Positions 6,241 through 60,784 of a DNA stretch of 64,000 bases are shown here, in pieces. Both the position numbers and the translations under genes were made by a program. The notes under the pieces are model-generated. The model made no database searches. It saw nothing but the letters and a program-made list of their open reading frames with translations, and was not told the origin of the DNA. Source of the DNA: Candidatus Cloacimonadota bacterium (GTDB lineage: Bacteria > Cloacimonadota > Cloacimonadia > Cloacimonadales > Cloacimonadaceae); assembly GCA_029567705.1 (NCBI GenBank), contig JAKPXC010000040.1:774-64773 (forward strand), given 5' to 3'. Every line of letters starts with the position of its first letter. Positions within the stretch are counted from its first letter, which is position 1.

Positions 6241-6320
6241 ATAACTGATTGCATAAGAAGCTTTTCCTTAACTGAGGTTAAGGATGGGTTAAGGATAGGT
6301 TTAGGAATCGACTTAGGAAG
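6241..6320 (+). repeat. GGTTAAGGAT-unit intergenic element, copy 1 (3 units)
   Basis: ataactgattgcataagaagcttttCCTTAACtgagGTTAAGGATGGGTTAAGGATAGGTTTAGGAatcgaCTTAGGAAG. It aligns with the six other copies listed below. Confidence 0.9.
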
Positions 6321-6353
6321 AGGATAGCAGGACGTGGAAAGAAATCAATAAAC

Positions 6354-6378
6354 AAGGCACTTTGAGTGCTTTTTTTTA
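6354..6378 (+). terminator. Hairpin plus T8 run, candidate terminator downstream of repeat copy 1
   Basis: AAGGCAC-tttga-GTGCTTT (short stem with a G-U pair) followed by TTTTTTTT. Confidence 0.55.
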
Positions 6379-6407
6379 TTGACAGCAGAACTAAGCTGGA
6401 AAAGGAT
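6379..6407 (+). promoter_or_regulatory. Candidate promoter of tRNA-Leu
   Basis: TTGACA at 6379-6384, a 17-nt spacer, then AAGGAT. The mature tRNA 5' end lies 12 nt further on. The -10 is poor. Confidence 0.35.
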
Positions 6408-6419
6408 GCTCAATAGCGT

Positions 6420-6506
6420 GCCGAAGTGGTGAAATTGGTAGACGCAGTGGACTCAAAATCCACCGAGCATTAGCTCATGCCGGTTCGATTCCGGCCTTCG
6501 GCACCA
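6420..6506 (+). tRNA. tRNA-Leu(CAA), CCA encoded
   Basis: Acceptor stem GCCGAAG/CTTCGGC. Anticodon arm GTGGA-CTCAAAA-TCCAC. Long variable arm. T-arm GCCGG-TTCGATT-CCGGC. Ends in A-CCA. Confidence 0.93.
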
Positions 6507-6680
6507 ATTCTTAAGGAGACAGAACGAAAGATTTGTTAGCCTAGGGCTATCTTTAAGGCATGATAACACGGAACCGTTTGGTTTCCGGATCAATCCGTTT
6601 AGAATTTAAACATATTCATATTGAAGGCTATATTTACTGATGCCTGCATACAGAAAAAAAATCCAAATTGTGGAGGTACC

Positions 6681-7724
6681 ATGTTTCGCAACACAAGAAT
6701 GATACAAGCTGCAGTCCTGATGATTGCATTAATAGCGCCCCTGGGGCTTTCCGCCATCTCCCAGGCTGCACCGCTCTTCCTTACCTTTGAACCCGGTGCT
6801 CGCGCAAACGGTATGGGACGTGCCTATACTGCCATAGCAGACGATGCCTATGCCGGATGGTGGAATCCTGCAGCCATGGCCTTCAACCGGAAGACGCAGC
6901 TCACTGCCACTCACATGCCATGGATGGTAGGTGCCGGAGCCGGTTTTGACGATATGTTCCATCAGTATTATGGCTGGAATCAGTACTTTGACGGTATTGG
7001 CAACCTGGGTGCCCATATTACCTGGTTGGATGCCGGTACGCAGATGCAGATGGATGAAGTTGGTAACGAGCTGGGGGAATTCCATACGTTTGAAGCTGCC
7101 TTTGCCATGGGCTATGCCTACGAAATGGTTCCCGATAAGATTGGCTTGGGTGGAAACTTCAAGATAATCTATAGTTACCTTGCTCCTGGAACAGGAAATA
7201 CAGATTCCGAAGGAAAGACCTTTGGTTATGCCTTTGATTTAGCCAGTAAGTTCAAGGATGTTGCCGGACTGGAAGGTCTGGATGCCGCAGCAGTAATCCA
7301 GAACATCGGCCCCAATGTGACCTACGTAAATGAAGCTCAATCCGATCCTCTGCCCATGACTATTCGTTTGGGTGCTGCATATCAGGTTCTTGATTCTCAG
7401 ATGGGAAGAATGAAGGTGAGCGTGGAAGCCAGCAAGATCCTGGCAAATGAAGACCCGCTTTTCCAGAGATTCATCACAGGCTTTGAACACATGGATGAAA
7501 CTATCTACGGTGCCGGTGGAGAATACACCTATCTGGATCTCATCACCATGAGAGCAGGTTATTTCTATGATAAAGCCGGAGAAGTGACTGGACCCAGCTT
7601 TGGAGCCGGTTTCCAATACAGCTTCAGCCAACGTTACAAGCTTACTGCCGATTTCGGCCTGATCTGGGGTGGAAAGCTAATCAACGATTATAATAAAATC
7701 TTCTCGCTGGGATTTGAATTCTAA
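6681..7724 (+). CDS. PorV/PorQ-like (FadL-like) outer-membrane beta-barrel, T9SS-associated
   Basis: Start moved to the ATG at 6681, which follows GGAGG at -11 to -7. Signal peptide MFRNTRMIQAAVLMIALIAPLGLSA. The motif PGARANGMGRAYTAIADDAYAGWWNPAAMAF matches what I remember of PorV-family proteins. C-terminal ...FSLGFEF is an OMP signature. Confidence 0.6.
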   Translation: MFRNTRMIQAAVLMIALIAPLGLSAISQAAPLFLTFEPGARANGMGRAYTAIADDAYAGWWNPAAMAFNRKTQLTATHMPWMVGAGAGFDDMFHQYYGWNQYFDGIGNLGAHITWLDAGTQMQMDEVGNELGEFHTFEAAFAMGYAYEMVPDKIGLGGNFKIIYSYLAPGTGNTDSEGKTFGYAFDLASKFKDVAGLEGLDAAAVIQNIGPNVTYVNEAQSDPLPMTIRLGAAYQVLDSQMGRMKVSVEASKILANEDPLFQRFITGFEHMDETIYGAGGEYTYLDLITMRAGYFYDKAGEVTGPSFGAGFQYSFSQRYKLTADFGLIWGGKLINDYNKIFSLGFEF

Positions 7725-7824
7725 GAAACTAGCTTGAAACATACATATATAAGTGGGTTCTTTGTGTTTGAAGCTCTTCGATATGGAGCGCAAACACAAG
7801 AGCCCATAAGCTTTTATCTGTAAT

Positions 7825-10968: not shown

Positions 10969-10982
10969 CTAGAGGTATCATA

Positions 10983-11960: not shown

Positions 11961-11964
11961 AGAA

Positions 11965-12645
11965 ATGAAACAGACTCGACTGCTTGCTGCTATCCTACTA
12001 ATCAGCTTGTCCTTGCCACTTGCCGGCTTGCCCAAGATAGCTCATGTGGGAATGTCTGCAATCTTGCCAGGCAGCGGACAGATCAGCTTGGGGAAGGTGA
12101 ACCGTGGGGCAGTAATGCTCACCGCCGACCTCCTGAGTATCTCCATGATGCTGCAATCTTCTGCAGAGATCAGATCTTTGGAACGCTCTTATACCGAACT
12201 GGCCAGAGTCTATGCAGGAGTTGAAAGCGCTCCGGATGATCGGTTCTGGCAGGATATGCAGAGATATCGCAGCAGTGATGAATTCAACCAAAGACAAGAG
12301 ATGCTGGCTCGCAACTACTATCTGCTTTACCTCACACCCAATGATGAGTACTCTTACAATGACTATCTTCAGATGTATCAGGAGTACCTTGCTGCCAATA
12401 CCTACGGCGAAGATGAATCCTGGAATTGGGAAAGCGACATCCAATGGAAGAAGTACAGAAACACCCGGGCAGATTATCAGGAAACCAAGCTCCTCAAGAA
12501 TCTCTTCATCGGTTTGATGATCTTTAACCGGGTCTTAAGCGTTATAGACGTAGCCTTTATCAATCCCCCCGGCGAGGCGCAGCGCCTTTATCTCACTCCC
12601 AGTGGTGAAACGGGGTTAATGCTAAATTATCAGATGGGTTTTTGA
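11965..12645 (+). CDS. DUF5683-like envelope protein, paralogue 2 (226 aa)
   Basis: Signal peptide. LPGSGQIS motif. IFNRVLSVIDVAF helix. Ends ...LNYQMGF. 4-nt gap from paralogue 1. Confidence 0.6.
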   Translation: MKQTRLLAAILLISLSLPLAGLPKIAHVGMSAILPGSGQISLGKVNRGAVMLTADLLSISMMLQSSAEIRSLERSYTELARVYAGVESAPDDRFWQDMQRYRSSDEFNQRQEMLARNYYLLYLTPNDEYSYNDYLQMYQEYLAANTYGEDESWNWESDIQWKKYRNTRADYQETKLLKNLFIGLMIFNRVLSVIDVAFINPPGEAQRLYLTPSGETGLMLNYQMGF

Positions 12646-12646
12646 C

Positions 12647-13291: not shown

Positions 13292-13442
13292 CAGTAATGC
13301 TTATCCAGACTGGTATGAATAGTATGATCAAGCTCACTCAAGCCACTCTTGTGGAAAAAATGCCAAAAAAGAATGTATTTTGGGGCTGATTTTGCTTGAC
13401 ATATTATTGCCTGTACATTAGAAGCGTACTGAGAGGTTTAAA

Positions 13443-14159: not shown

Positions 14160-14176
14160 ACAACGAGGTAATGATT

Positions 14177-14554: not shown

Positions 14555-14577
14555 TTGTACTTTCCTGTAAAGCTTTA

Positions 14578-14604
14578 GCGGGTCATTTATGATCCGCTTT
14601 TTTT
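14578..14604 (+). terminator. Rho-independent terminator
   Basis: GCGGGTC-atttat-GATCCGC followed by TTTTTTT. Confidence 0.75.
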
Positions 14605-14677
14605 GTCCGTACCGATCAATCTTGCCTTAACCTGAACTCAGGATGGCTATCCCCTGCTTCATTACCCAGCCTCCATG

Positions 14678-14760
14678 GCTTCCTGATTCAATTCCTTAAC
14701 CTATCCTAAACCCATCCTTAACCTCAGTTAAGGAAACTCTTATCCTGCGGTAAGTTAGCA
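14678..14760 (-). repeat. GGTTAAGGAT-unit intergenic element, copy 2 (3 units)
   Basis: The reverse complement reads gcTAACTTAccGCAGGATAAGagTTTCCTTAACtgagGTTAAGGATGGGTTTAGGATAGGTTAAGGAattgaATCAGGAAG. An extra degenerate unit (ctgagttcaGGTTAAGGCa) lies further on at ~14617-14640. Confidence 0.9.
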
Positions 14761-14888: not shown

Positions 14889-16157
14889 CTATATCTGAAT
14901 CAGACCGTCTTCATAGATGGCGTTGGGTTCCAGGAAGAACAGTTCACCCAGATGCGCCTGCTTAGATATATACCCTCTGATATAGTGATCACTCAGGAAG
15001 CTGGCAAGTTCACTCTCGATTTTATCAATAACTCCCCTAAGCGAGACTCTATTCTCTAGAATCTTTTGTCTGTAGGCGGTTTTCAGATCTTCTGCCATGG
15101 AGATCAAACGGTTTGAACGTTCCTGGGCTATAGTGCCATTGATCTGGTTCGGCATAGTAGCTGCCGGTGTGCCTTTTCGTTTGGAGTATTGGAACACGTG
15201 CAAGTAGCAAAGGGGACTCTCCTGAAGGAACTTATAAGTCTCCATAAATTCTGCCTCGGTTTCTCCGGGGAAAGCACAGATGATGTCTCCCCCGATTGCT
15301 GCGTGAGGAAGGTTTGAGGTTATCTTCTCAAGTAAATCACTTAAATGCTTTTGCTTATATACGCGTCCCATCCGACCGAGCACGCTATCCGCGACTGACT
15401 GGATAGCGAGATGGAAATGAGGTGCGATTTTCTTCGAGCAAGTTACCTGCTCCAGCAGTTCATCTGTAAAGAGCTGAGGTTCTAGGGAACTGAGGCGAAT
15501 GATCTCCAGTCCTTCTATCTCTTCCAGCTTCCTCAACAAGCCGGAAAGACCCAGCTTGCCATCCCGGTAGAGACCTAGATTGACGCCGCCCAGGACTATC
15601 TCTTTATAGCCAGAAGCCACGAAAGTCTGCGCCTGCAAGATCACATCTTCCGCTCGAGCGCTGCGATTGTGTCCTCTTCCGTAAGGCACCGCACAATAGC
15701 TGCAATAGAAATCACAGCCGTCCTGAATCTTCTGAAAAGCCCGGCTTCTATCCAACATTCCTTTCTGAAGGTGGAAATTGAAAGCTTCTGCCTGCATGAT
15801 GTCCATGAATCCCGGATCAGACTGTTGAACCAGTTCCTTCAAATCAAGTTTGTGCTGATTATCTATGACGTAGTCTACAGCTCCAAGGCTAAGCACTTCC
15901 TCCCGACTTCTCTGAGAATAACATCCGGTTACCACTATTTTCATGGCAGGATTGGCTTCCTTGACCTTCAAGGCCCGGCGGATCAGGTTTCTGCTCTTGA
16001 AATCGGTTCGATTTGTGACGGTGCAGGTGTTTATCAGGTATAGATCAGCAGGCTCGCCGAACTCCACCAGAATAGCGTCGTCAAAGGCTCCCACCATAGC
16101 AGCCGATTCTGCTTGATTGGTTTTGCAACCAAGGGTTGCGACAGCTATCCTGATCAT
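14889..16157 (-). CDS. mtaB: tRNA threonylcarbamoyladenosine methylthiotransferase MtaB (radical SAM)
   Basis: [22 protein letters not shown]-terminus. CDFYCSYCAVPYGRG radical-SAM CxxxCxxC motif. Confidence 0.8.
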   Translation of the reverse strand: MIRIAVATLGCKTNQAESAAMVGAFDDAILVEFGEPADLYLINTCTVTNRTDFKSRNLIRRALKVKEANPAMKIVVTGCYSQRSREEVLSLGAVDYVIDNQHKLDLKELVQQSDPGFMDIMQAEAFNFHLQKGMLDRSRAFQKIQDGCDFYCSYCAVPYGRGHNRSARAEDVILQAQTFVASGYKEIVLGGVNLGLYRDGKLGLSGLLRKLEEIEGLEIIRLSSLEPQLFTDELLEQVTCSKKIAPHFHLAIQSVADSVLGRMGRVYKQKHLSDLLEKITSNLPHAAIGGDIICAFPGETEAEFMETYKFLQESPLCYLHVFQYSKRKGTPAATMPNQINGTIAQERSNRLISMAEDLKTAYRQKILENRVSLRGVIDKIESELASFLSDHYIRGYISKQAHLGELFFLEPNAIYEDGLIQI

Positions 16158-23122: not shown

Positions 23123-23237
23123 CTTTCACCCCGTCGAAAGGTATTTTTCTTTAAGAATCAGCAAATTGTAGCCTCTGGATTTAGTCAACAATTTTCCTTC
23201 CTGCCTGTCCAAACGAATACCTCCCTCTCTCTCTTCG

Positions 23238-23306
23238 CTTCCTAATACGATTCCTTAACCCATCCTTAACCTCAGTATAGGATTCGTTTATCTTGCAATA
23301 AGTTAC
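23238..23306 (-). repeat. GGTTAAGGAT-unit intergenic element, copy 3 (2 units)
   Basis: The reverse complement reads gTAACTTAttGCAAGATAAacgaatCCTATACtgagGTTAAGGATGGGTTAAGGAatcgtATTAGGAAG, followed by GCGAAGAGAGAGAGGGAGG. Confidence 0.9.
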
Positions 23307-23375
23307 CCCACAAGGAATGGATAGAAGACTAACAAGGTTGCAACTCAATGCCAATAAATGATATATACCACTTCC

Positions 23376-23416
23376 CTACAAAATGAAAGAGCAGGCTCCT
23401 TGCGGTCACCTGCTCT
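23376..23416 (-). terminator. Rho-independent terminator of hup
   Basis: Minus strand: AGAGCAGG-13 nt-CCTGCTCT followed by TTCATTTTGT. Confidence 0.7.
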
Positions 23417-23435
23417 TTCGGCTTTCACTAAAGAG

Positions 23436-23711
23436 TTACTTTTTTACAGCATCTTTGAGTTTCTTACCAGCTTTAAATACGGGAACTTTACGGGCTGGAA
23501 TCTTCAAAGGTGCTTTGGTTTTGGGGTTGATACCCTTGCGGGCTTTGCGCTTAGCAACGCTAAAAGAACCAAAACCAACCAAAGTCACTTTCTCGCCCTT
23601 TTTGAGAGCTTCTGTGATGCCCTCAAGGACGGCTGCGAGTGCGGCACCGGCTAATTTCTGTGAAATCCCGGCTTCTCCAGCGATTTTCTTAATCAATTCA
23701 TCTCTGCTCAT
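23436..23711 (-). CDS. hup: Histone-like DNA-binding protein HU
   Basis: MSRDELIKKIAGEAGISQKLAGAALAAVLEGITEALKKGEKVTLVGFGSFSVAKRKARKGINPKT... is the canonical HU/IHF fold sequence. Confidence 0.93.
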   Translation of the reverse strand: MSRDELIKKIAGEAGISQKLAGAALAAVLEGITEALKKGEKVTLVGFGSFSVAKRKARKGINPKTKAPLKIPARKVPVFKAGKKLKDAVKK

Positions 23712-24008
23712 TTTACCTCCTTTACTAAGTACTCAAAAGAGTTCGAGATATTTGTTTTGAAGTAAAATCAAGCCTGTACATCCTGTCAACAAAAAAAAAC
23801 AGCTTCCTACCATTTCTAAAAGCCTTCTGAGGCAAGACTTACGGTGATCAATACATGTATCTACATAACAGAGAACTTATTAACAGCATATATTGTCTTA
23901 GTATATTATTCTACACATACCGAAAAAAACCTTGAAAGACTCTTTTCAATTGACAAAATCCAGCCCTCGAAGCCATGGTCTTTTACAAAAGATTATGTGG
24001 AGGATTTA

Positions 24009-25714: not shown

Positions 25715-28700
25715 TTGAAGCTCTATAAGTCTCTCCAGATAGCTATCCTTCTCATTAGTCTAACCCCGGGACTTCTTGCCCTTGAATACATTCACACCCA
25801 GACCATTGAGCTGGTATCAGGTCAATCCACATACCAACTTTCAAATGGAAACATTATAGTTAATACTGAAACTGTCGAGACCGAGGTGGGGCAATTAGAA
25901 CAGGGGATCGACTACGTTCTGGATTATAAATCCGGCTTATTGACCCTCCTGAGGCCACAAGATGCCCGCTTCATACTGGTCAGATATTTGAACCTCCCAT
26001 CCCGTTTTGCTCAATCTGCAAGCTTCTATGAGATCTATACGAGCCAGGATAGTCTGCCCCAAATCAATGCCAGACGACCTCTGTTCAATCCAGATAGTAA
26101 TCTGAACTTAAGAGGTTCCAAGACCTTTGCACTGAGCTTTTCAGATGATGCTGCCTTTGATCTGAAACAATCTCTCTTTGTGAACCTAAGTGGAAGCTTG
26201 GCACAGAATGTAGAGATATTGGCTCAGCTTTCTGATAGCCAATCCAAACTGAGCCCGGAGGGAGATTCCAGGGAACTAAGCAGCTTGGACAAGGTCTTTA
26301 TCAAGGTTTTTGGCCCCAGATACGAGATAGCTATGGGTGATCTGGCCTGGAAAAGTCAAGACAGCAAGTATCTTAGCTACACTACTAGTTTCGAAGGCCT
26401 AAAAGCTGCCTATCAGGGAAGCTTCAATCTCGAAGCAGGATACTCTGCCGCCACAGGCAAGACAGCTTCTATGGTATTGGAGATTATTGAGGGCAAACAG
26501 GGGCCTTATTATCTGAACGTGGACGGTTTTCAGAGTAGCTACAAGGTTGTGGCAGGAAGCGAGAGAATCTATCTGGACGGCAAGCTTCTGGATCGAGGCA
26601 GTGACTACACTATAGATTACAATGAAGGCACTGTTATGTTTCTAATCCTGGTTAGCCCTGCGAATAACGTTCTGGTGAACTACCAGTATTCAGACGAGAA
26701 CTATAAGCAGAGTATGCTATACAACTCTTTCAGGTATGATCTTAGTCCCAAGCTGTATGTAGTTCAGAATATGATACACCAGACTGATGATTCATCTGTG
26801 CCTTTGGTGGGAGACTTTTCAGATTCAGACTTGGAGGCTTTGGCAGCTGCGGGGGATAACAATGTCTGGGGAAACGGAATCTTTGAAGTGGAGCCGGGCT
26901 CTGGAACTTACAAGCAAGCCTTCACCGGTGATGGCATCCCCTACTACGTCTATGCTGCAGGAGACAGCCTGGCAGATTACAACCTGTTCTTCAGTTATGT
27001 GGGCTATGGTTCTGGTGATTATGAGCAGTATTCCAGTGGGAAGTACATCTACCGGGGACAGGGCATGGGTTCCTGGTTGCCTCAGAAGAGATTGATAGCT
27101 CCCGTAAGACGCACAAATGTAAATACAGGGCTTCACTTCCATGATAATGCCTTTTCCTTGGGCGCTGAAGCGATATATACCGTGAATGATCTGAACACCC
27201 TTTCAGATTTGGATGATGGTGACAACAGAAGCGTATTGTATAACCTCAACGGTGCATGGAGAAATGATGCAGGTTTCATCAAGCCAGAACTGTGGATTGA
27301 TTATGAGAAGAGGCTGGAAGATAGCTATCTCTTCGCTCAGGTAGAGGATCCCGGAGAGCAACAGGACATGAGCTTGATAGCGATGCCGGATTCCCTTTCC
27401 CGGGAACAGCTCACTGCCAGACTCAAGCTCCAGGTGGGAGAAGGCTGGCTACAGACCTTGAGCTTTCAAACCAGAAGCTATCCCGGACAGACTACCCGCA
27501 GCCTACGGTATATGAGTATAAACTCTGCCAAAGGTCTCATACCGCAGACAAGTCTCAACGCTACCTATGCCCTGCATGAATCGGATGAGCCAAACACTAC
27601 CGACAGCCAGCTTTACTATTCCACACTGAACAGCCAGTGGAACCTCAGCAAACTATCTCTGAGGCTGGAAGGCTTGCTCAACGCTCTTTTGTACGATGAT
27701 AATCAGAACACACTTCCGGGAACAGCCTACTGGAAGCTAAACCCCACACTGAGTTACTCCAGCGGAAACAATCTCCGAAGCAGCGCTTCTTTTGCGGCAG
27801 ATCAAGCCCTGGTTCAGCACGATGACTGGCAGAAGCTGAACAGCAGCTCAACCCTGGCAATCAAGCAAGTTTACAACAGCCAAGCCAACAATCTCGACCT
27901 GGACTATACTCATCGTGAGATAAGGAAACATGACGCAGAGAATCCCCGCTCCTTTTACGATCTGGCACGCTTCAGATCCACTCATAACTGGCTGAAGAAT
28001 GCCTTAAACCTCACGGCTCAATACCAGCTTAATCAAACAGAATTCTTTCCCAGAATCCGAGAGCTCGAATATGTAGGCGTGGGACTGGGGCTCTACGACA
28101 GCACAGGTGTGGTGACCTCCGGGGGAGACTACGATTACACATATATAACCAGTGATCAAGGAATCACCAGCTCTGAAATAACAGCCTCTGCTTCCGCATA
28201 TCTGAGGCCGGGCTTGGTCTTCAGTGACGATATCTCCAGACGTTTCACTTCAGACATTAGTTTGAGCGCTGTGGAGATCACAGAGCAAAGGAACGAACTC
28301 AAGACTTATCTCTTTTTCCCCGGATACGTCTTTGATCCCCTGCAAACTATCTACGGTCGACAAACTTTCCTTCAAAACCTCTGGGTAGATCTTTGGCGCA
28401 GCAAAGTAAACCTGAATCTTGCCTGGGATATAGACAGGAGTCTTGATAGAAGGTATCAGGAGCTCTACAGGTCTTACACTCAGAATCGCAGCATAGGCCT
28501 GGAATTCAGAGCCTTCCTGGGAAGTAACTTCAACCTGCGTTACATAAGTAATCAAGAGGACGACAGCCGTTACGAATCCAGCATAGATAAAGATAACTAC
28601 AGCTTTATCTGGCAGAAAAACTATTCGACTCAAACTGCCTTGGACATGAACCTAGATTACAGCGAAGAGAGCGGTGATAGCTACGTAGCTGAGACGAGCT

Positions 28701-28981
28701 ACACCCTCAAGAGTCTCTCCCTCACCGGCAACCTGAGAACAGTATATCAACAGAAGTATCGCTTCAGCAGCAGGCTGGGCTTCCGTTACAATGACCGCAG
28801 CGGTTCAGACTACCTGAGCTTCCTACCTGAAAAGCGGGAAGGCTTCAGCACCACTTGGAACCTGAAGGCTATCTACCGAATAAACAGCTTCAGTTCCGTG
28901 AACTTTGACTACACTGGTAATCTCTACCCGGAACAGAAAGCCAGACATACCATGAAATTGGAGTTTAAAGCAGAACTATGA
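25715..28981 (+). CDS. Very large (1088 aa) predicted outer-membrane beta-barrel protein, family unknown
   Basis: The TTG start lies 1 nt after the umuD stop. Signal peptide KLYKSLQIAILLISLTPGLLA. N-terminal DY-x-(L/I)DY-x-x-G motifs. The remainder has alternating Y/S/N/L beta-strand-like composition. Confidence 0.65.
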   Translation: MKLYKSLQIAILLISLTPGLLALEYIHTQTIELVSGQSTYQLSNGNIIVNTETVETEVGQLEQGIDYVLDYKSGLLTLLRPQDARFILVRYLNLPSRFAQSASFYEIYTSQDSLPQINARRPLFNPDSNLNLRGSKTFALSFSDDAAFDLKQSLFVNLSGSLAQNVEILAQLSDSQSKLSPEGDSRELSSLDKVFIKVFGPRYEIAMGDLAWKSQDSKYLSYTTSFEGLKAAYQGSFNLEAGYSAATGKTASMVLEIIEGKQGPYYLNVDGFQSSYKVVAGSERIYLDGKLLDRGSDYTIDYNEGTVMFLILVSPANNVLVNYQYSDENYKQSMLYNSFRYDLSPKLYVVQNMIHQTDDSSVPLVGDFSDSDLEALAAAGDNNVWGNGIFEVEPGSGTYKQAFTGDGIPYYVYAAGDSLADYNLFFSYVGYGSGDYEQYSSGKYIYRGQGMGSWLPQKRLIAPVRRTNVNTGLHFHDNAFSLGAEAIYTVNDLNTLSDLDDGDNRSVLYNLNGAWRNDAGFIKPELWIDYEKRLEDSYLFAQVEDPGEQQDMSLIAMPDSLSREQLTARLKLQVGEGWLQTLSFQTRSYPGQTTRSLRYMSINSAKGLIPQTSLNATYALHESDEPNTTDSQLYYSTLNSQWNLSKLSLRLEGLLNALLYDDNQNTLPGTAYWKLNPTLSYSSGNNLRSSASFAADQALVQHDDWQKLNSSSTLAIKQVYNSQANNLDLDYTHREIRKHDAENPRSFYDLARFRSTHNWLKNALNLTAQYQLNQTEFFPRIRELEYVGVGLGLYDSTGVVTSGGDYDYTYITSDQGITSSEITASASAYLRPGLVFSDDISRRFTSDISLSAVEITEQRNELKTYLFFPGYVFDPLQTIYGRQTFLQNLWVDLWRSKVNLNLAWDIDRSLDRRYQELYRSYTQNRSIGLEFRAFLGSNFNLRYISNQEDDSRYESSIDKDNYSFIWQKNYSTQTALDMNLDYSEESGDSYVAETSYTLKSLSLTGNLRTVYQQKYRFSSRLGFRYNDRSGSDYLSFLPEKREGFSTTWNLKAIYRINSFSSVNFDYTGNLYPEQKARHTMKLEFKAEL

Positions 28982-32687: not shown

Positions 32688-32739
32688 TCATTCCTTTATT
32701 CTATTGGCTCCCCATCCCTGCATCACCTCTTTCCTATCG

Positions 32740-32808
32740 CTTCCTAATACAATTCCTTAACCCATCCTTAACCTCAGCTAAGGAAATGCTTATTCTGCAC
32801 TAAGTTAC
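32740..32808 (-). repeat. GGTTAAGGAT-unit intergenic element, copy 4 (2 units)
   Basis: The reverse complement reads cgTAACTTAgtGCAGAATAAGcaTTTCCTTAGCtgagGTTAAGGATGGGTTAAGGAattgtATTAGGAAG, followed by CGATAGGAAAGAGGTGATGCAGGGATGGGGAG. Confidence 0.9.
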
Positions 32809-32953
32809 GGCTTGGGCATCTACCTAGTGAGCGATGTGATTGAAACAGAGTGGCTTAAGACTGCAAACAAAGCTGAAGACTGCGATTCTTCAGTCGCAGG
32901 TGTCTTTAGTCTCCAATTCCTGCCGTCTTGATGTGAATTTGCCTGAACATTCG

Positions 32954-39991: not shown

Positions 39992-40188
39992 GATCTATTT
40001 CCTCTCTTTCTACTATAATGATCTTGATGTTCTTTAGGACAAGATAAGAGATGCCTTAATTATGTCAAGTACTATATTAATTTTTTTAAGCTTCCATACT
40101 AAGATGCTTAATAATAGGCGACTATATAAGCCATTTAGAAAGGGAAAGAGGTATCGTGATTGTGACTGACTTGGCAGCCATTGGCTAA

Positions 40189-40252
40189 AGTAACATAGGA
40201 TAAGAGTTTCCTAAACTGAGGTTAAGGATGGGTTAAGGAATCGTATTAGGAA
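40189..40252 (+). repeat. GGTTAAGGAT-unit intergenic element, copy 5 (2 units)
   Basis: aagTAACataGGATAAGagTTTCCTAAACtgagGTTAAGGATGGGTTAAGGAatcgtATTAGGAAG. The 5' arm is shortened. Confidence 0.9.
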
Positions 40253-40320
40253 GCCATAGGTAAGACATCCGGATCCAGCCAGCAGAATTCGGCAACTAAA
40301 TGCCCCCGAGACAGATATGG

Positions 40321-43832: not shown

Positions 43833-44009
43833 ATGGCAAAGAACCATCGCGGTAAAGGCTTGAACAGCTTGCCAAACCACGGCAGAGGCGAATGCCCCGT
43901 TTGCAAACGTACCGGCGTGAAGCTGCTGCATGAAGTCAAAGTGGCCGACAAGACCGTTAAGGTCTGCAAAGTCTGCAAAAACACAGCAGCCAGCAAGTTA
44001 AGCGCCTAA
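43833..44009 (+). CDS. Unlisted 58-aa basic zinc-ribbon protein
   Basis: Own translation: MAKNHRGKGLNSLPNHGRGECPVCKRTGVKLLHEVKVADKTVKVCKVCKNTAASKLSA. AAGGAG SD 7 nt upstream. CxxC-20-CxxC. A terminator follows. Below the 60-aa ORF-track cut-off. Confidence 0.6.
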   Translation: MAKNHRGKGLNSLPNHGRGECPVCKRTGVKLLHEVKVADKTVKVCKVCKNTAASKLSA

Positions 44010-44018
44010 TCATAATTT

Positions 44019-44072
44019 AGATCTGGGATCGGTCGTGTTTTATATAACCAAGAACTCCCGGATCTTTTTTTT
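44019..44072 (+). terminator. Candidate terminator after the small zinc-ribbon ORF
   Basis: AGATCTGGGA (44019-44028) pairs with TCCCGGATCT (44056-44065), with one G-U pair and a 27-nt loop, followed by T8. Confidence 0.5.
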
Positions 44073-50522: not shown

Positions 50523-50969
50523 TTACAGTTCTGCCATCAGCTTTTCCCAATATCCCACTTCTGGAAGCAATCCCGCTTCCACAGCTCTTCTCACCGTGAT
50601 GCAGGGCAGTTCCTGCTCATAGATATCAGCCCTGTTCAGAGTTCTGAGATCTATTTCGGGTCTCTGTCTTGCCATTTGGTACATCAATCTGAGGTAAAGA
50701 TTTACCCAGGACACAGCCGGTTTACGCTCCATAAATTCCGAATTCTGATACGTCCAGAGATAGCGAATCAGATCATTTTTGTATGCTTCGCTGGGTTTGA
50801 TGCGATGCAGGTTGGCTGTGATAGATCCGGTCTGGTGATGATGTTCACTCAGTTTAGGATACTTTCTTCTTCTGGCATAAGCCTGACCACTGCGTTTATC
50901 CCAGCAATAGACCAGTTCCCCGACTGCGCCAGATAGGGCTGGCATCCCACATTGAAAACGTACTTTCAT
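50523..50969 (-). CDS. Hypothetical protein (148 aa)
   Basis: ORF track only; no motif I can name with confidence. Basic N-terminus, W/Y-rich. Confidence 0.5.
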   Translation of the reverse strand: MKVRFQCGMPALSGAVGELVYCWDKRSGQAYARRRKYPKLSEHHHQTGSITANLHRIKPSEAYKNDLIRYLWTYQNSEFMERKPAVSWVNLYLRLMYQMARQRPEIDLRTLNRADIYEQELPCITVRRAVEAGLLPEVGYWEKLMAEL

Positions 50970-51024
50970 GTTTTTCTCCTATAGTTTGCTCAGGTTCAGA
51001 AATAGAACCCTCTACCTTTTATAC

Positions 51025-51056
51025 GTGGACGTTTTCCCAAATGAGTGGACACTTTC
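51025..51056. promoter_or_regulatory. Direct repeat GTGGACgTTTTC / GTGGACaCTTTC, candidate operator
   Basis: Two 12-mers at 51025-51036 and 51045-51056 match at 10 of 12 positions. Their starts are 20 bp apart. They lie 56-87 bp upstream of the 148-aa gene. Confidence 0.3.
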
Positions 51057-51152
51057 GGTGATTATTTTCAATTTCTCTAAACTTCTTTTGGCATACGTGT
51101 GTAAGGTGTTGATAGACAATCGGTTTTACTCACTCACCACATAGGTATACGC

Positions 51153-51230
51153 TAACTTATTGCAGGATAAGCCTTTCCTTAACTGGGGTTTAGGATGGGT
51201 TTAGGATAGGTTAAGGATTCTTATCAGGAG
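51153..51230 (+). repeat. GGTTAAGGAT-unit intergenic element, copy 6 (3 units, degenerate)
   Basis: cTAACTTAttGCAGGATAAGccTTTCCTTAACtgggGTTTAGGATGGGTTTAGGATAGGTTAAGGAttcttATCAGGAGGG. Confidence 0.9.
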
Positions 51231-51372
51231 GGCATAATCATTCTTGACAAGTTCCTAAGTATGGATGTTACAGTTCAGCTATACCAAAGCGAAATAGATT
51301 CCATTGATAGATGAATCATTCTGTACAGATCAAAGCACTTAGGAATCTATCTAAAGCATAGAGGAGAGATAC

Positions 51373-53061
51373 ATGAGCTGGTTGCTGGGAAACTTCGGCA
51401 ACGAAAACATTAGAAGTTGTTGCCCAGAAAGTCCAGAGGTTGTAGTTGAGAAGCCGGGCTTTTGCTTATATGCGGGTGGAAATCCCAGAACCTTTACCAA
51501 ACATCAGCTTCCTAATGGAGATCAAGTGCTGGTTCTGGGTTATCCAGTTTACTTTGACGGGAACCAGTATGTCAATCTTACTCCCGATAAGCTTCTTGAT
51601 TTAATGAAGCTGACTGATCCCACGGAAAGCCTTGACGGACACTACCTGATCCTAAGAATTCGGGGCAGGGAGATAGATGTTTTCAATGACAAGCTGGGCA
51701 AACGCTCTCTTTATATCTACCAGCATGGTAACAGAACTTTGTTCACCACTCACATCGCCATCCTAAGAAAGGCAGTTAATCCTGAGCTGGATTTCCATAA
51801 GCTGGGACCACTGTGGCATACAAGATATCCGACTGGAAGCGGAAAGTACTGCCCCAGTCTGGATTCATACTATCGCCACACAACCATGTTGGGCACAGGC
51901 TCCAAGGCAACCCTGAAGAATGGAAAAGTCGAGATTGTCAACCATCCTTTCCATCCCGATTCGAACAAAGGAGACATCTTCCCAATGATAGAGTCTTTCT
52001 GTCTCAGCACTCCCAAAAGTCGGTTGCCAATAGCCATCAGCTTATCAGGTGGGATGGATATCCGGAGCTTGTTGGCAGTTTTCCTAAAGGCAAAAGTGAA
52101 CACATTCGCTGTTCATTACGGACGTGAAGACACCTCAGATTATCACATAGCAAGAAAGATTTCAGAAGATAATGGCATAGCATTTAGGCATATCGGTTTT
52201 AAGGAGGCGGAAGGCAATGATCCTTGGCAACAAGTGATCGATTACATGCAGACTCTGGGCTTGGTGGCAAATCCAGTCGAAGCACCATATATAGGTTTCT
52301 ACAAGGAAATTGCGCGTGAATCTGATCTGATAGTAAGTGGTTACTTCGGGAGTTTATATCGAATTCGCATTTATGTAACACACCTCCTTAACTGGCTGAA
52401 TCACAAACAACTTAAGACAGCAGATTTGCATGCTTTACTTCGCTTGGAACCACCTCCGATCTTTCAGCCTGATTGTATCAAAGAATTGAATCAAGGCTAT
52501 AGGGAGTGTATTGAATCAGTCTATGAATTGCTTAATAACCACAGAGATTTGAATAATCTACTACTACTGGATCTTCTGTTGGCAGGACATAGCCCTGCCT
52601 CCATGATACAGAACACCCTGACCTTCCTGGATCAGCATATTGTTGATCACATGCCTTGGCTTCAGAGCAGGATTCTCTCGCAACATTGGCATTATGGCTT
52701 GGCGTATCAGTTTATGGAAGGCATTCATCGAGACCTAATCAAGCGGAACTGGCCATCATTGGCTAAATACCCGATTGCCTTGTATGACATCCAAGCACCC
52801 TACAACTATCAGGCCTATATGGTAAAAGTGAAATCTTGGTACATACATCGTTTTAAACCGGTGCAGACGGAAGATCGGGTTATCCGGCTTCTGACAATAA
52901 ACCGTGAAAGCATCCTGGATCTGTTTAATAGCAAAAGAGTAAGGGATTATGCTCCATACAGGCTAGGATATATAGAGAAATCCATTGAGGAGTTTTACAA
53001 GGGAGAACGGAGAAAAGCACCGGTTCTGATGAGCTGGCTCTCGGTGGAATTGGGGAGATAG
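51373..53061 (+). CDS. Asparagine synthetase B-like ATP-pyrophosphatase lacking the N-terminal catalytic Cys
   Basis: PP-loop IAISLSGGMDIRSLLA. AsnB-like HYLILRIRGREIDVFNDKLGKRSLYIY. The N-terminus is MSWLLG rather than MCG. Confidence 0.7.
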   Translation: MSWLLGNFGNENIRSCCPESPEVVVEKPGFCLYAGGNPRTFTKHQLPNGDQVLVLGYPVYFDGNQYVNLTPDKLLDLMKLTDPTESLDGHYLILRIRGREIDVFNDKLGKRSLYIYQHGNRTLFTTHIAILRKAVNPELDFHKLGPLWHTRYPTGSGKYCPSLDSYYRHTTMLGTGSKATLKNGKVEIVNHPFHPDSNKGDIFPMIESFCLSTPKSRLPIAISLSGGMDIRSLLAVFLKAKVNTFAVHYGREDTSDYHIARKISEDNGIAFRHIGFKEAEGNDPWQQVIDYMQTLGLVANPVEAPYIGFYKEIARESDLIVSGYFGSLYRIRIYVTHLLNWLNHKQLKTADLHALLRLEPPPIFQPDCIKELNQGYRECIESVYELLNNHRDLNNLLLLDLLLAGHSPASMIQNTLTFLDQHIVDHMPWLQSRILSQHWHYGLAYQFMEGIHRDLIKRNWPSLAKYPIALYDIQAPYNYQAYMVKVKSWYIHRFKPVQTEDRVIRLLTINRESILDLFNSKRVRDYAPYRLGYIEKSIEEFYKGERRKAPVLMSWLSVELGR

Positions 53062-56194: not shown

Positions 56195-56241
56195 TATCTC
56201 GCTATTCTCTAATTGGGAAATAACATCCCGTTCTTACGAAA

Positions 56242-56280
56242 CTAGCCTGAGAACAAAGTGCAAGCTTTATCTCAGGCTAG
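56242..56280 (-). terminator. Strong hairpin downstream of pyrG, possible terminator
   Basis: CTAGCCTGAGA pairs perfectly (11 bp) with TCTCAGGCTAG across a 17-nt loop. On the minus strand only TTTCG follows. Confidence 0.4.
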
Positions 56281-56398
56281 AAAACTACTTTACTCCTTTT
56301 ATTGTGGAACTGAATCCACAAGACTCCAAAACATATTCACCATGAACACGTTAAGTTACTAGAGTTCAGCTGATATTGATATGTTTGCTCTGTAGCTT

Positions 56399-57988: not shown

Positions 57989-58001
57989 CTTTATTTCTCC
58001 A

Positions 58002-58029
58002 TAAAAAAAGGCGGGACGACTGTCCCGCC
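58002..58029 (-). terminator. Rho-independent terminator of the thiolase/aminotransferase operon
   Basis: Minus strand: GGCGGGAC-agtc-GTCCCGCC followed by TTTTTTT. Confidence 0.8.
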
Positions 58030-58036
58030 ATAGGGT

Positions 58037-59281
58037 TTAGCAGAGAGGCTTTAGCTCAGCCAAAGCGTCTTTAATAGAATCCACAGTATACTGTAGGTCT
58101 TCATAACTGTGACGGTAACAAATATATCCGTGATGGTAAGGTTGCAGGAAGACTCCCCTGCGGATTAACTGAGTATAGAATTCCGCTCTGAGCTTCTTAT
58201 ACAAGCCTGTCTCATCCTTGGGGAAGGTAATGAAGGGCATCCAGGGTGATCCACTAAAGGCAGCATTGATCCCTGAATCCGCCAACACTTTTTCCACCCG
58301 CTCGGCAAACCAATAACCCTTGGTAGCGATATCTTCCAGAGCTTTGTCGCGTTGAAGAATCTCGATAGTTTTGAGAGCGGCGATCTGTGCATCAGAATTT
58401 GGGAAGAAGGTAGAGGAAAGGAAGACCTTATCTTCCATCACCTTCATCATCTCTCGTTTTCCAACCAGTGCCGCAATGGGATAACCATTTGCCATGGCTT
58501 TTCCGACCGTGGTAAGATCAGGAGTAACACCAAAGTGTTTCTGAGCACCACCGATGGAACAACGGAAACCGCTACGGATCTCGTCGAATATCAATACGCA
58601 ACCATATTGATCTGCCAGCTTGCGCACTCCTTCCAGGTAACCCGGCTTGGGCATCTGAACCTCTGCAGCCAAAGGATGTCCCACAGGGGTAACAATGATA
58701 CCGGCCATATCATCGGCATTGGCTTTCAGGATAGATTCCAGTTCATCCAGATCATTGTAATGGAATTCAAAGATGTCTTCATAGAGCTTGGATGGAATAC
58801 CACCCTTCACTTCCACGCACCAATCGTGCCAGCCATGATAACCGCAGCGGGCAATCTTGGTCTTCCCCGTATAAGCTCTGGCCACCCGGATGCCAATGGT
58901 TGTGGCGTCCGAACCGGTCTTTACTATGGCAGCCATATCGCAGCAGGGAATACATTCAGAAAGCTTTTGGATCAGTTGGTTCTGAATCTCCTGAGTAAGC
59001 GAGAAGCAAAAGCCTTTGTTCTTGATCTGAGCGATCACAGCATCATCCACTTCTTCTTCACGATAACCCAGAATGATGGGACCGTAGGCGCAGAGGTAAT
59101 CTATATACTCGTTACCGTCTACGTCTGTAATCCTGCCACCCTTGCCATTATCGAAGAAGATGGGATACTCACCAGGGACGAAGTTGTACGGACGGCGGAT
59201 GCCGGCCACGCCTCCCGGTGCCAGACGCTTGGCTTCTTCAAAAAGAGCCATGCTTTTGGTTAAATTCAGTTTATCTGCCAC
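58037..59281 (-). CDS. Class III (GSA-aminomutase-like) PLP-dependent aminotransferase
   Basis: LFEEAKRLAPGGVAGIRRP...DVDGNEYIDYLCAYGPIILGY. Likely PLP lysine in TTVGKAMANGYPIAA. Confidence 0.8.
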   Translation of the reverse strand: MADKLNLTKSMALFEEAKRLAPGGVAGIRRPYNFVPGEYPIFFDNGKGGRITDVDGNEYIDYLCAYGPIILGYREEEVDDAVIAQIKNKGFCFSLTQEIQNQLIQKLSECIPCCDMAAIVKTGSDATTIGIRVARAYTGKTKIARCGYHGWHDWCVEVKGGIPSKLYEDIFEFHYNDLDELESILKANADDMAGIIVTPVGHPLAAEVQMPKPGYLEGVRKLADQYGCVLIFDEIRSGFRCSIGGAQKHFGVTPDLTTVGKAMANGYPIAALVGKREMMKVMEDKVFLSSTFFPNSDAQIAALKTIEILQRDKALEDIATKGYWFAERVEKVLADSGINAAFSGSPWMPFITFPKDETGLYKKLRAEFYTQLIRRGVFLQPYHHGYICYRHSYEDLQYTVDSIKDALAELKPLC

Positions 59282-59290
59282 GTATTCCTC

Positions 59291-60487
59291 CTATCTGGTC
59301 CAGATTGTTGCAATGCCCATACCACCACCAATGCAGAGGGAAGCAAGGCCTTTTTGGACGTTACGGCGTTTCATCTCATGAAGCAGAGTAACAATAATTC
59401 TTGAACCACTGCAACCAATGGGATGACCCAAAGCGATAGCTCCACCATTGACATTTACAATGGATGGATCAAGCTTACCCACTCCCTCCTTTTCCAAGCC
59501 TTTCAGCACAGCCAAGGACTGGGAGGCAAAAGCTTCATTGAGCTCAGCCAGTTCGATATCCCCAAGCTTCATTTGAGACTTTTCCAATACCTTCTTGATG
59601 GCAGGAACGGGTCCGTAACCCATAATGGCAGGATCCACACCGGCTGATGCAGTTTCTACGAAAGTTGCGAGAATCGGAAGGCCAAGTTCCCTGGCTTTGT
59701 CTTCACTCATCAGCAGCAGCATGGCAGCACCATCATTGATTCCGCTGGCATTGGCAGCAGTTACGGTTCCGTCATTCTTGAAAGCCGGTCTGAGCTTGGC
59801 AAGGCTTTCTGCCGTCACTCCGGCTCTGGGCATCTCATCTTTGTCGATCACAATGGGATCGCCCTTTCTTTGAGGAATGATAACCGGTACTATCTCATCT
59901 TTGAAAGCCCCACTTTTCTGGGCAGCTTCGGTCTTATTCTGAGAGAGAGCGGAGAATTGATCCTGCTCTTCTCTGGAGATTCCGTATTGCTCTGCCAGAT
60001 TTTCGGCTGTGATACCCATGTGATAGTTGTTGAAAATGTCTGTGAGGCCATCATGCACCATAAGGTCAACCATATCCTTGTTTCCCATTCTGGCTCCCCA
60101 ACGGGCATTCATCAAGGCATATGGGATCTGGCTCATATTCTCTGTACCGCCGGCAATCACGATATCAGCTTCACCGCTGCCAATCATCAGAGTGGCAAGG
60201 CTGACTGCTTTCATACCGGAACCACATACTTTATTCACTGTGAAGGAAGGGATATGCTGCGGCACACCTGCACCGATAGCTACCTGCCTGGCAATGTTTT
60301 GACCGTATCCGGTACCACAAACGTTACCGATGATAAGTTCATCCAATTGCTTGGGATCAAGACCTGTTTCAGATAGGATGGCTTTTACGACTGTCACGCC
60401 TAATTGAACGGCAGAGACGTCCTTGAAAACGCCGCCAAAAGTTCCTATAGCTGTGCGTTTTGCGGAAACGACAACCACTTTTCTCAT
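59291..60487 (-). CDS. Acetyl-CoA C-acetyltransferase (thiolase II)
   Basis: [19 protein letters not shown]. Active-site [12 protein letters not shown]-terminal [17 protein letters not shown]...LCIGGGMG. Confidence 0.92.
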
Positions 60488-60703
60488 GAGAACCTCCAGT
60501 ATTCATTTTGTTATTTTCTGCAACTCTGAAATCCACAGCTTTTTCGTCAACCCCAAACTGGAGAATTCTTCCGGATATATCGGAATCAGTCCAGAACTTC
60601 TTGTCTATTATAAGATTGATGATTCGGATGATTCTTACGGACTCAAGATGACTTAAGTAATAACAGCCTATCACAGATAACTCACCTGTTCGAAGATGAA
60701 GCC

Positions 60704-60784
60704 GTAACTAATAGTAAAATAGACCTTTCCTAAACCGGGGTTAAGGATGGGTTAAGGATGGGTTAAGGAATCTCCTTAGGAAGA
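60704..60784 (+). repeat. GGTTAAGGAT-unit intergenic element, copy 7 (3 units)
   Basis: cgTAACTaatagtaaaatagaccTTTCCTAAACcgggGTTAAGGATGGGTTAAGGATGGGTTAAGGAatctcCTTAGGAAGAGATGGG. Confidence 0.9.

Follow-up and report, generated by a model that had tools for sequence, protein, structure and literature searches.

Introduction

The repeats called REPs (repetitive extragenic palindromic sequences) are described in three papers (PMC3733652; PMC3116915, PMC3337134) as high-copy, short, extragenic, palindromic and genome-specific repeats with several families per genome, thought to be maintained by a single-copy protein acting in trans and not by an encoded transposase. By definition, one end of their palindrome is tagged with the tetranucleotide GTAG or CGTC (PMC3733652). 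Here we analyze a repeat, the W element, of which seven copies (c1 to c7) lie in 64 kb of the chromosome of Candidatus Cloacimonadota (hereafter the window, meaning the whole stretch of DNA that was analyzed); contigs of the same organism amounting to about 150 kb were also examined. All seven belong to one family, W, within a class of interspersed extragenic repeats found across Cloacimonadota. The members of this class are designed around a short central inverted repeat with one and the same core of 7-9 bp repeated head to tail on one or both sides, always in an 11-bp register and usually with more units on one side, W being an arm-reduced variant. Our preferred reading, which we hold tentatively (probability about 0.45), is that this is a REP/BIME- or foldback-like repeat class acting as duplex DNA, the phased units being predicted sites for a lineage-specific trans-acting protein that would spread or homogenize the copies.

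The BOX elements of Streptococcus pneumoniae (boxA - boxB(n) - boxC) are modular intergenic repeats with variable tandem internal modules and no encoded transposase, while the Foldback (FB) elements of Drosophila have inverted arms made of short tandem sub-repeats, the arms being unequal and variable and the central loop small or absent. The STRR heptamer arrays of heterocystous cyanobacteria are lineage-specific, dispersed intergenic tandem units of unknown function. Phased arrays of protein sites include the ArcA and PhoB direct repeats, spaced 11 bp from center to center, the low-affinity 9-mer DnaA boxes of E. coli oriC, with 2-bp gaps and opposite orientation, the 11-bp iterons of ParR-parC, and FRT, in which an inverted pair is accompanied by a third direct repeat.

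Results and Discussion

A modular non-coding repeat is present seven times in the window

The W element is a non-coding repeat of roughly 90-135 bp. A profile hidden Markov model was built on 26 distinct copies and used to scan the window with nhmmer, which returned exactly seven copies, at coordinates matching the places and strands given in a preliminary description of this DNA (Table 1). Full elements scored at least 46 bits and everything else 19 bits at most, a gap from which it follows that the window holds no decayed W copies; c7 was split into two overlapping matches because of its third unit. Allowing up to one mismatch, GGTTAAGGA was found 36 times in the window, compared with 12.4 +/- 3.7 times in shuffled sequences, and the matches fell in seven places. 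The number of tandem units had been counted correctly (three in c1, c2, c6 and c7, two in c3, c4 and c5), the purine-rich strand is indeed poor in C (0-4% within the units and 10-14% across the cores), and a CRISPR array had been rightly discarded, since the units are contiguous on the 11-bp register and there are no spacers. Two figures need correction: the period is 11 bp instead of 10 bp, as shown by the unit starts of c1 (6276, 6287 and 6298) and by Tandem Repeats Finder, and GGA motifs number 3-6 per core instead of 4-7 per copy. Conservation also reaches past the ends first assigned to the copies, in both directions.

The layout of the element was drawn from anchored stacks of 29 distinct copies, read on the purine-rich strand. 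It starts with a weakly conserved pyrimidine-rich extension, covering some 45 nt upstream of TAACTTA, followed by the 5' module TAACTTAyTGCAGGATAAGC, an arm that consists of a single inverted unit (TCCTTAAC), the 4-nt center TGAG, a block of two or three intact GGTTWAGGA units in the 11-bp register, and the 3' module ATCGTATTAGGAAG-SSATWGGnrAG, after which a purine-rich tail extends to about +100. By eye, the 3' module is made up of one or two more degenerate units, roughly in phase. Purines make up 41-45% of the left side but 56-75% of the right one, so that the core looks like the preserved center of a larger, degenerate dyad. The 3' module is nearly uniform in two-unit copies and more diverged in three-unit copies; subfamilies therefore exist within W, a structure typical of amplifying repeats.

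Substitutions in W are over-dispersed across columns (index 3.9, P = 5e-20, excluding the region of the 20-mer used as bait). Since an exact 20-mer served as bait for the metagenome copies, its invariance among them is an ascertainment bias, which affects neither the window copies nor the profile search. In the seven window copies, 0.15 changes per column were counted in the units and 1.23 elsewhere (P = 6e-5). The units are thus the most constrained columns of W, the sole change tolerated in them being an A/T swap at the center, and the proposal that conservation is based on primary sequence holds within the family.

The invariant 20-mer recovered around 45 metagenome contigs with a full W element, representing 29 distinct copies and coming mostly from Ga0116172/3/4, ERZ795031 and Ga0208458. 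Some of them are identical to copies of the window, and since identical copies are present in these independent assemblies, the element is not an assembly artifact. Several metagenome contigs begin or end inside the repeat (L006, L010, L015, L026, L065 and L066), which indicates that the W family fragments short-read assemblies of the organism. In the GTDB representative genomes, the same 20-mer gave just three isolated single matches, in unrelated organisms. A phage or plasmid origin was considered and rejected, the viral collection having yielded just four isolated single matches, probably due to chance. No copy had a match in Rfam, either at gathering thresholds or at E<=1, and our literature search found no description of such repeats in Cloacimonadota, in agreement with the initial impression that the element matches no known class. 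To our knowledge, and in the literature searched, a phylum-level class of dyad-symmetric, 11-bp-phased, species-specific extragenic repeats has not been described.

Relatives carry sister families with other units in the same register

The neighborhoods of dnaN and pyrG in relatives of the window organism were picked solely by protein homology, giving nine loci and 192 kb in which gene order is conserved. The W sequence is absent from these loci (DnaN 62-96% identical), whereas the spacers occupied in the window hold elements of the same design with quite different units (sister families, Table 1); the Syntrophosphaera locus (L087, DnaN 59% identical) has a weak example at most. When arrays of at least three units with at least 80% identity were counted in the 192 kb, 13 were found at period 11 and none at periods 7-10 and 12-16, and at least 12 distinct unit sequences share the 11-bp period. 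The arm changes together with the unit from one family to another (TCCTTAAC/GTTAAGGA, CATTAGC/GCTAAAG, CCCGCGTG/CACGCGGG, CCAGGCAC/GTGCCTGG). A 5' module of the form GTAAnnnAyTGCAGGAyArGC is common to W and to the families of L079 and L076.

In an all-against-all comparison, copies within one genome scored 58-133 and copies in the same spacer of different genomes 10-24, which is background. Because copies resemble each other within genomes and those in the same spacer of other species do not, the sequences show concerted evolution within genomes. The element upstream of dnaN in L079 aligns with c3 better than shuffled sequences do (z = 4.6, with z = 0.5 for the flank and z = 27 for the promoter). 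Retention of a locus-specific sequence at this site was considered and discarded: 16 other W copies are closer to the L079 element than c3 is, so that the likeness is at the level of the family.

The spacers occupied in more than one genome lie upstream of dnaN and of the thiolase gene, and downstream of the radical-SAM gene, of the TauE/cyclase genes and of a SpoIIE-type sensor gene, the last being empty in the window. The c2 spacer holds other families in L076, L077, L078 and L085; that of c3 is occupied in L079, L076, L077, L085 and L086; and the one orthologous to c4 is occupied in L076 (228-384), L078 (3436-3505) and L085. In the c7 spacer of L088 there is an element of the L076 family in inverted orientation, and orientation is inverted at two shared sites of the L076/L088 genome. 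Two families are sometimes found side by side in one spacer, and some species lack an element where others have one (L078 upstream of dnaN, L089 upstream of the thiolase gene). The genomes compared are too diverged for clean filled and empty sites, with an identity of 40% at 4-fold sites.

Other repeats were noticed along with these families. In L016 (3075-3130), about 350 bp from a W copy and in the same spacer, there is a second 11-bp family of the window organism (family V), a canonical, near-perfect palindrome with unit ATTACGGACTC in which three units face two, in the order ATTACGGTGTT-ATTACGGACTC-ATTACGGACT-A-AGTCCGTAATG-AGTCCGTAAT. Further short tandem arrays stand directly beside W copies in L035 (240-345, minus strand, and 65-119) and L069 (1958-2043); they consist of around ten ATGGAC motifs on a register of about 9 bp and of GTGAACA/TGTTCAC heptamers. 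The long spacers of the window organism seem to be rich in such microsatellite-like arrays in general. A different palindrome, AACCTTATAAnnTATAAGGTTGACCTAAGGA, occurs twice in the 21 kb of L090 (5590-5630 and 19685-19725) and may be a separate REP-like family.

A putative protein reading phased units on duplex DNA

The fixed step of one helical turn, together with the freedom of the sequence, is best accounted for by a predicted sequence-specific protein that would recognize the duplex on one face of the helix. In keeping with this, polarity reverses at a dyad, the units are under the strongest constraint and accept an A/T swap at their center, and the copies lie outside neighboring transcripts. 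According to our preferred reading, W elements would act as double-stranded DNA, and the units, which follow one another at one helical turn along a single face and change polarity at the dyad, would be protein recognition sites. The reader protein would be lineage-specific, most likely transposase-like or domesticated, by analogy with RAYT in the case of REPs; it would bind cooperatively, and would copy or homogenize the elements within the genome. A copying or homogenizing protein acting in trans is suggested by the fact that genome-specific, homogeneous families replace one another in the same spacers, which resembles REP/BIME/REPIN-RAYT systems. The elements would persist in non-transcribed spacers, upstream of outward promoters or after terminators, where they would do little harm and might insulate neighboring units. 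That a protein reads the units, that it mobilizes or homogenizes the copies, and that the host obtains some benefit are suppositions of this model.

Several observations weigh against it. No target-site duplication or terminal inverted repeats at the outer ends, the marks of a MITE (a non-autonomous derivative of a DDE transposon), can be defined for W: GCCATA-type motifs are found at either end, but those of a given copy do not match each other, inspection of the flanking bases revealed no per-copy direct repeat, there is no empty site to fix the exact ends, and the sole inverted repeat is the central one, the 5' and 3' modules not being inverted copies of each other. No candidate gene for a transposase, HUH protein or integrase was found in the 64-kb window. 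The hairpin of W is weak, the model leaves the conserved 5' module unexplained, and the REP tags GTAG and CGTC are absent from W as tags at the palindrome end. A fixed step of 11 nt equals the helical repeat of the A form too and would suit a long hairpin of RNA or single-stranded DNA, so that a folded single strand is conceivable on the strength of the period alone. A few 7-, 8- and 9-bp arrays are present in the contigs of the window organism (which were selected for W), some of them adjoining W, and the near-even spacing of the copies described below is not what would be expected of a purely selfish repeat.

Copies occupy the long spacers, between outward-reading promoters and terminators

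All seven copies are intergenic. When the gaps of the window are ranked by length, seven of the top eight hold a copy, which bears out the location first proposed. The remaining gap among these eight holds a small unlisted gene, so every truly long gap in the window carries a W copy. This gene (43833-44010, plus strand) is below the 100-aa cut-off of the list of open reading frames (ORFs) and encodes a 59-aa protein with two CxxC pairs (MAKNHRGKGLNSLPNHGRGECPVCKRTGVKLLHEVKVADKTVKVCKVCKNTAASKLSA). Its signals are a TTGACT box (43767), an AAGGAG that resembles a Shine-Dalgarno sequence and, near 44065, a T-run like that of a terminator. The coordinates of the copies, their parts and their setting are collected in Table 1.

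Table 1. Positions of W copies and associated signals in the window, and repeat families found in relatives.
Feature	Position	Strand	Details
c1	6240-6331	+	nhmmer 62.4 bits; three units; between terminator of 1780-aa beta-helix gene and tRNA-Leu
c1 left arm	6265-6272	+	TCCTTAAC, then loop TGAG
c1 units	6276-6284, 6287-6295, 6298-6306	+	followed by 3' module
Intrinsic terminator of gene upstream of c1	6166-6193	+	12-bp stem, then T-run
Terminator-like hairpin after c1	6354-6372	+	
tRNA-Leu TTGACA box	6379-6384	+	after the terminator-like hairpin
c2	14671-14760	-	nhmmer 68.7 bits; three units; downstream of radical-SAM (MiaB-like) gene 14889-16157(-), before terminator hairpin 14577-14598
c2 left arm	14727-14734	-	
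c2 units	14715-14723, 14704-14712, 14693-14701	-	
c3	23229-23307	-	nhmmer 69.4 bits; two units; between HU gene 23436-23711(-) and dnaN promoter
c3 left arm	23275-23282	-	TCCTATAC
c3 units	23263-23271, 23252-23260	-	
dnaN -35-type box TTGACT	23183-23188	-	about 40 bp past unit side of c3, reading away; kept in relatives
c4	32728-32811	-	nhmmer 78.9 bits; two units; downstream of adenylate-cyclase/TPR gene, antisense to both flanking plus-strand genes
c4 left arm	32777-32784	-	TCCTTAGC
c4 units	32765-32773, 32754-32762	-	
c5	40184-40266	+	nhmmer 70.5 bits; two units; between two minus-strand genes
c5 left arm	40209-40216	+	TCCTAAAC
c5 units	40220-40228, 40231-40239	+	
DUF2089 gene TTGACA box, beside c5	40063-40068	-	reads away
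c6	51149-51238	+	nhmmer 65.7 bits; three units; divergent spacer
c6 left arm	51176-51183	+	
c6 units	51187-51195, 51198-51206, 51209-51217	+	
TTGACA box beside c6	51244-51249		reads away, towards gene at 51373
c7	60701-60792	+	nhmmer, two overlapping matches, 46.3 and 32.1 bits; three identical units; upstream of thiolase gene 59291-60487(-)
c7 left arm	60728-60735	+	TCCTAAAC
c7 units	60739-60747, 60750-60758, 60761-60769	+	
Thiolase gene TTGAC box, beside c7	60546-60550	-	reads away
L079 family			DnaN 96% (amino acids); 4-fold sites 40%, saturated; GCTAAAGGATC, arm CATTAGC
L076 / L088 (one genome) families			DnaN 74%; GCAGGATnCAA; plus TCACnnGGG family
L077 families			DnaN 72%; TCACGCGGGnn, four inverted and four to six direct units; plus CTTGTACTCAA
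L078 family			DnaN 69%; CAGGCATGCTT / GTGCCTGnnGC
L085 families			DnaN 65%; TGCGTATTTCA; GCAGCAAGGAA
L086 family			DnaN 62%; TGTGGCTATGA
L089 families			PyrG 78%; AAGTAATGCCC; TTAAGGCTTGA
L090 family			PyrG 73%; CAGCGATCAGT

Copy c1 begins 47 bp past the upstream terminator and is therefore outside the transcript of that gene; it is also the sole copy (1/7) with a terminator after it. The hairpin next to c2 belongs to the convergent plus-strand gene and is bidirectional by eye; c2, located between a stop codon and the terminator, is probably within a 3' untranslated region (3' UTR). Within 150 nt of W elements, TTGAC boxes read outward in 24 cases (14 on the right and 10 on the left) and inward in four (two and two), the expectation being about 3.3 per class; the box is thus enriched on both sides, but in outward-reading orientation. 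From these promoters and terminators we conclude that the copies are in spacers that the neighboring genes mostly do not transcribe across. A bias in orientation with respect to the downstream promoter, which seemed apparent in a first asymmetric count (12 vs 0), vanished with equal flanks (14 right, 10 left) and was dropped.

Direct repeats centered 11 bp apart in every copy, present upstream of promoters in about half of the cases and with the units as the most conserved part, are also what would be expected of operator arrays, through which a winged-helix regulator of the OmpR/PhoB/ArcA type would control a regulon of adjacent genes. This is one of the options contemplated in the preliminary description, where tandem sites one helical turn apart were proposed for an OmpR/PhoB-type protein. 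In physical logic (phased protein sites) this option is right, and it is the best supported of those contemplated: unrelated unit sequences all keep the 11-bp period, and the units are the most constrained part of the element. The type of protein does not fit, since close species have entirely different motifs and promoters lie at variable distances. From the element to the -35 box there are between 1 and 141 nt, the boxes lie on either side and orientation to the promoter is not fixed; c2, c4 and c5 are between convergent genes or in 3' regions; and the neighbors (tRNA-Leu, dnaN, thiolase, a cupin gene and a DUF2089 gene) are functionally unrelated. Replacement of the whole motif between species with DnaN proteins 74-96% identical is far faster than the change normally undergone by regulator specificity. 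All this makes a classical operator extremely improbable.

As previously described, no transposase is present in the window, nor is there an integrase or HUH protein among the approximately 40 ORFs scanned, which are ordinary chromosomal genes; the type IX secretion system genes PorV and Por_Secre_tail are found there and, together with the homologues of DnaN and PyrG, assign the window to Candidatus Cloacimonadota. A gene associated with the element was looked for and rejected, the ORFs adjoining the copies being unrelated to each other. The HU-type gene next to c3 (23436-23711, minus strand; 91 aa) is placed between a TPR gene and dnaN, as in relatives, and its counterpart matches PF00216 in L076, L078, L085 and L087; the 125-aa ORF on the opposite strand (23383-23760, plus strand) is spurious. 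The dnaN promoter itself is conserved across species as TTGACT-N16-ATTTGC (window 23140-23190, minus strand; L076, L077, L078 and L079), and this conservation suggests that Cloacimonadota promoters may pair a -35 TTGAC with a Bacteroidota-like TTTG box and not with a TATAAT -10. Around c6, a window-specific insertion of about 2.7 kb (50523-53061) comprises a 148-aa ORF of no family, the W copy and a gene for an Asn-synthase-like protein; at the corresponding site in L088 the Fer4 genes abut the end of the SpoIIE-sensor gene, and order differs in L089 and L090. Since the block is missing from the synteny with L088, c6 lies in lineage-specific DNA. Elsewhere in the window, the gene at 25715-28981 (plus strand) encodes a 1088-aa protein without Pfam domain; it is syntenic in most relatives sampled (1082-1127 aa), where it sits between the genes for an S24 peptidase and TauE, and is thus a conserved unknown of the phylum.

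The family is poorly explained by RNA or by folded strands

The preliminary description favored a family of small RNAs (sRNAs) whose GGA and AAGGA motifs would sequester either a CsrA-like protein or 30S subunits, the latter through their anti-Shine-Dalgarno end. There are indeed 3-6 GGA per core on a C-poor strand, the purine-rich tail extends for around 100 nt, and c1 is flanked by two terminators. Furthermore, changes in the left arm lean towards G-T wobble on the purine strand (six changes compatible with wobble versus zero of the opposite type, P about 0.06), and the GCAGGA of the 5' module could sit in the loop of a small hairpin. Tests of RNA structure, however, gave it no support. RNAalifold finds 0 covarying pairs; in the two candidate hairpins, 86.3% of the cells pair, versus 85.6% in column shuffles; and the consensus fold is no better than that of shuffles on either strand (z = -1.5). 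Neither is there an Rfam match even at E<=1, a conserved sigma-70-type promoter upstream, or a downstream terminator in six of the seven copies. The promoters nearby fire away from the copies (24 vs 4) and orientation relative to flanking genes is mixed. The TTATTGC of the 5' module was considered as a promoter by comparison with the ATTTGC of dnaN, and discarded because the nearest -35-like sequence is about 4 nt too far and the spacing is not conserved.

Most sister families, with the same architecture and in the same spacers, have units without GGA, such as TCACGCGGG, CAGGCATGCTT, TGTGGCTATGA, AAGTAATGCCC and CAGCGATCAGT; GGA is missing from units of L077, L078, L086, L089 and L090. It is for this reason that the idea of a sponge is not supported. 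In 388 kb of Cloacimonadota DNA, tblastn with the CsrA sequences of E. coli and B. subtilis returned nothing at E<0.4; the lack of csrA in a sample of that size is weak evidence. Taken together, these data render an sRNA function of the W element very improbable.

Another possibility is that the elements act in cis as folded single strands, with no dedicated reader protein, either as RNA hairpins at the ends of transcripts (stabilizers, RNase III sites or terminators, roles described for REPs) or as DNA cruciforms absorbing the negative supercoiling driven by transcription. In the twin-domain model, negative supercoils accumulate upstream of promoters, which is where copies are located, and c2, being probably in a 3' UTR, would fit the RNA version. 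The elements of relatives that were folded are strong palindromes (z -4 to -14), arm and unit change together between families, and 11 bp is the A-form helical repeat as well. W fits this picture poorly: its hairpin (TCCTTAAC-TGAG-GTTAAGGA) has just an 8-bp stem, with a fold z of -1.3 to -1.5, and changes in the left arm are uncompensated, as had already been pointed out when the hairpin was first described. Most copies are outside neighboring transcripts. A hairpin needs neither a fixed 11-nt sub-repeat nor unequal numbers of units, and the units are conserved far past what pairing with a single arm would need. As a general explanation this is therefore improbable, although roles as cruciforms or RNA hairpins are possible for the strongly palindromic sister families. 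An intrastrand triplex (H-DNA) was also considered and rejected, because the units repeat directly, with no mirror symmetry, and the triplex motif in the literature is rich in G/C.

Near-even spacing and chromosome organization

The seven copies are 7.5-11.0 kb apart, a near-even spacing of about 9 kb with a coefficient of variation (CV) of 0.12. The probability of such regularity is P = 2e-4 to 2.4e-3 when compared with a random choice of seven gaps (net length cut-offs of 30 to 150 bp), and P = 8e-5 when compared with uniform placement. In relatives, density is about one element per 7-10 kb, at positions that are partly orthologous and hence not independent. Structural or domain-boundary DNA was one of the roles initially put forward for the element; of this, the spacing is significant, but predicted curvature is not raised. 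In the Bolshoy-Trifonov wedge model, the intrinsic curvature at element positions ranks between the 72nd and 98th percentile of the window and is not elevated, and curvature was rejected as a general explanation, since real units bend no more than shuffled ones, with the exception of one sister family.

The spacing could reflect a host function, with the arrays being chromosome-organizing sites to which a co-evolving protein of the nucleoid or insulator type would bind, and being kept roughly evenly between transcription units as boundaries for supercoiling or looping. Besides the regularity itself (CV 0.12, P = 2e-4 to 2.4e-3), several facts agree with this: each truly long gap of the window holds a copy, occupied spacers recur from species to species, terminators and outward-facing promoters enclose the copies, density is similar in relatives, and there are no decayed copies. 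On the other hand, the spacing statistic comes from one window, with the limit already noted for relatives; the presence of several families per spacer and the flips in orientation look like turnover or re-insertion; c6 is in a recent insertion; L078 and L089 have no copy in spacers occupied elsewhere; and predicted curvature, as indicated above, is not elevated. On balance, we regard host organizing sites as possible but doubtful. A more specific form of this idea, a dedicated Cloacimonadota organizing system in which 11-bp phased arrays are set about every 9 kb between transcription units and are bound by one protein, or by paralogous ones, with a DNA specificity that co-evolves with the sites fast enough to give every species a 'dialect', the arrays serving as supercoiling or looping boundaries, is unlikely. 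If true, it would represent a hitherto undescribed kind of bacterial insulator system, one defined by sequence.

Implications

Three traits are newly seen here: a central inverted repeat that defines a wider palindromic class, the occupation of the same spacers in relatives, and concerted evolution. If the class-level result holds, a phylum that is abundant in anaerobic digesters keeps the 11-bp register and the dyad while swapping the sequence in each species, which would amount to a natural experiment in the co-evolution of a protein and its DNA sites and would offer a handle for finding the partner protein. The even spacing of about 9 kb and the repeated use of the same spacers bear on the question of REP-like repeats as selfish passengers versus elements of chromosome organization, in a lineage unrelated to the Proteobacteria in which REPs have been studied. 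In practical terms, these repeats break metagenome assemblies, might serve as markers for strain or species typing, and should be masked when sRNAs or regulatory motifs are predicted in these genomes.

Comparison with known systems

W resembles REP, BIME and REPIN sequences in being high-copy (seven per 64 kb), strictly extragenic and organized in genome-specific families, several of which can coexist in a genome, and in lying between transcription units, with about one copy per 10 kb. It differs in the tags, GTAG being present in 3/24 copies at a variable column and CTAC, CGTC and GACG in 0/24, and in that no RAYT or IS200/IS605-type gene, which REPs usually flank, was seen among the ORFs of the 64-kb window. 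The REP stem-loop is an imperfect palindrome of 20-40 bp; here, the palindrome is built from 11-bp tandem sub-units in unequal numbers per side. W has nearly lost one arm, has an 8-bp stem only, and carries conserved non-palindromic 5' and 3' modules, while the sister families and family V (L016) are clear palindromes.

With BOX, W shares the combination of conserved end modules and variable tandem internal modules. The internal module is about 45 bp long in boxB versus 11 bp in W, and BOX has terminal inverted repeats between boxA and boxC; we know of no replacement of BOX units species by species with retention of the period. The likeness to FB is an analogy of architecture only: FB elements are eukaryotic, of kilobase scale and with sub-repeats of 10, 20 or 31 bp, and there is no evidence of common descent or of a shared mechanism. 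STRR arrays differ in that their unit measures 7 bp and that they lack both a central inverted repeat and conserved end modules. As for CsrB, RsmY and RsmZ, the resemblance lies in several GGA motifs on a C-poor strand and in AAGGAUG, which recalls the core defined for CsrA by SELEX (systematic evolution of ligands by exponential enrichment); unlike them, W is without a promoter and terminator of its own, an Rfam match or structural support, and has sister families without GGA.

The arrays of phased protein sites are close to W in physical terms: cores of 7-9 bp recur at 11-bp steps along one face of the helix, and polarity reverses as it does in oriC and FRT. Those arrays, however, form single loci or small regulons and keep their motifs from species to species, whereas the class to which W belongs probably has hundreds of dispersed copies, with a motif that is replaced between close species.

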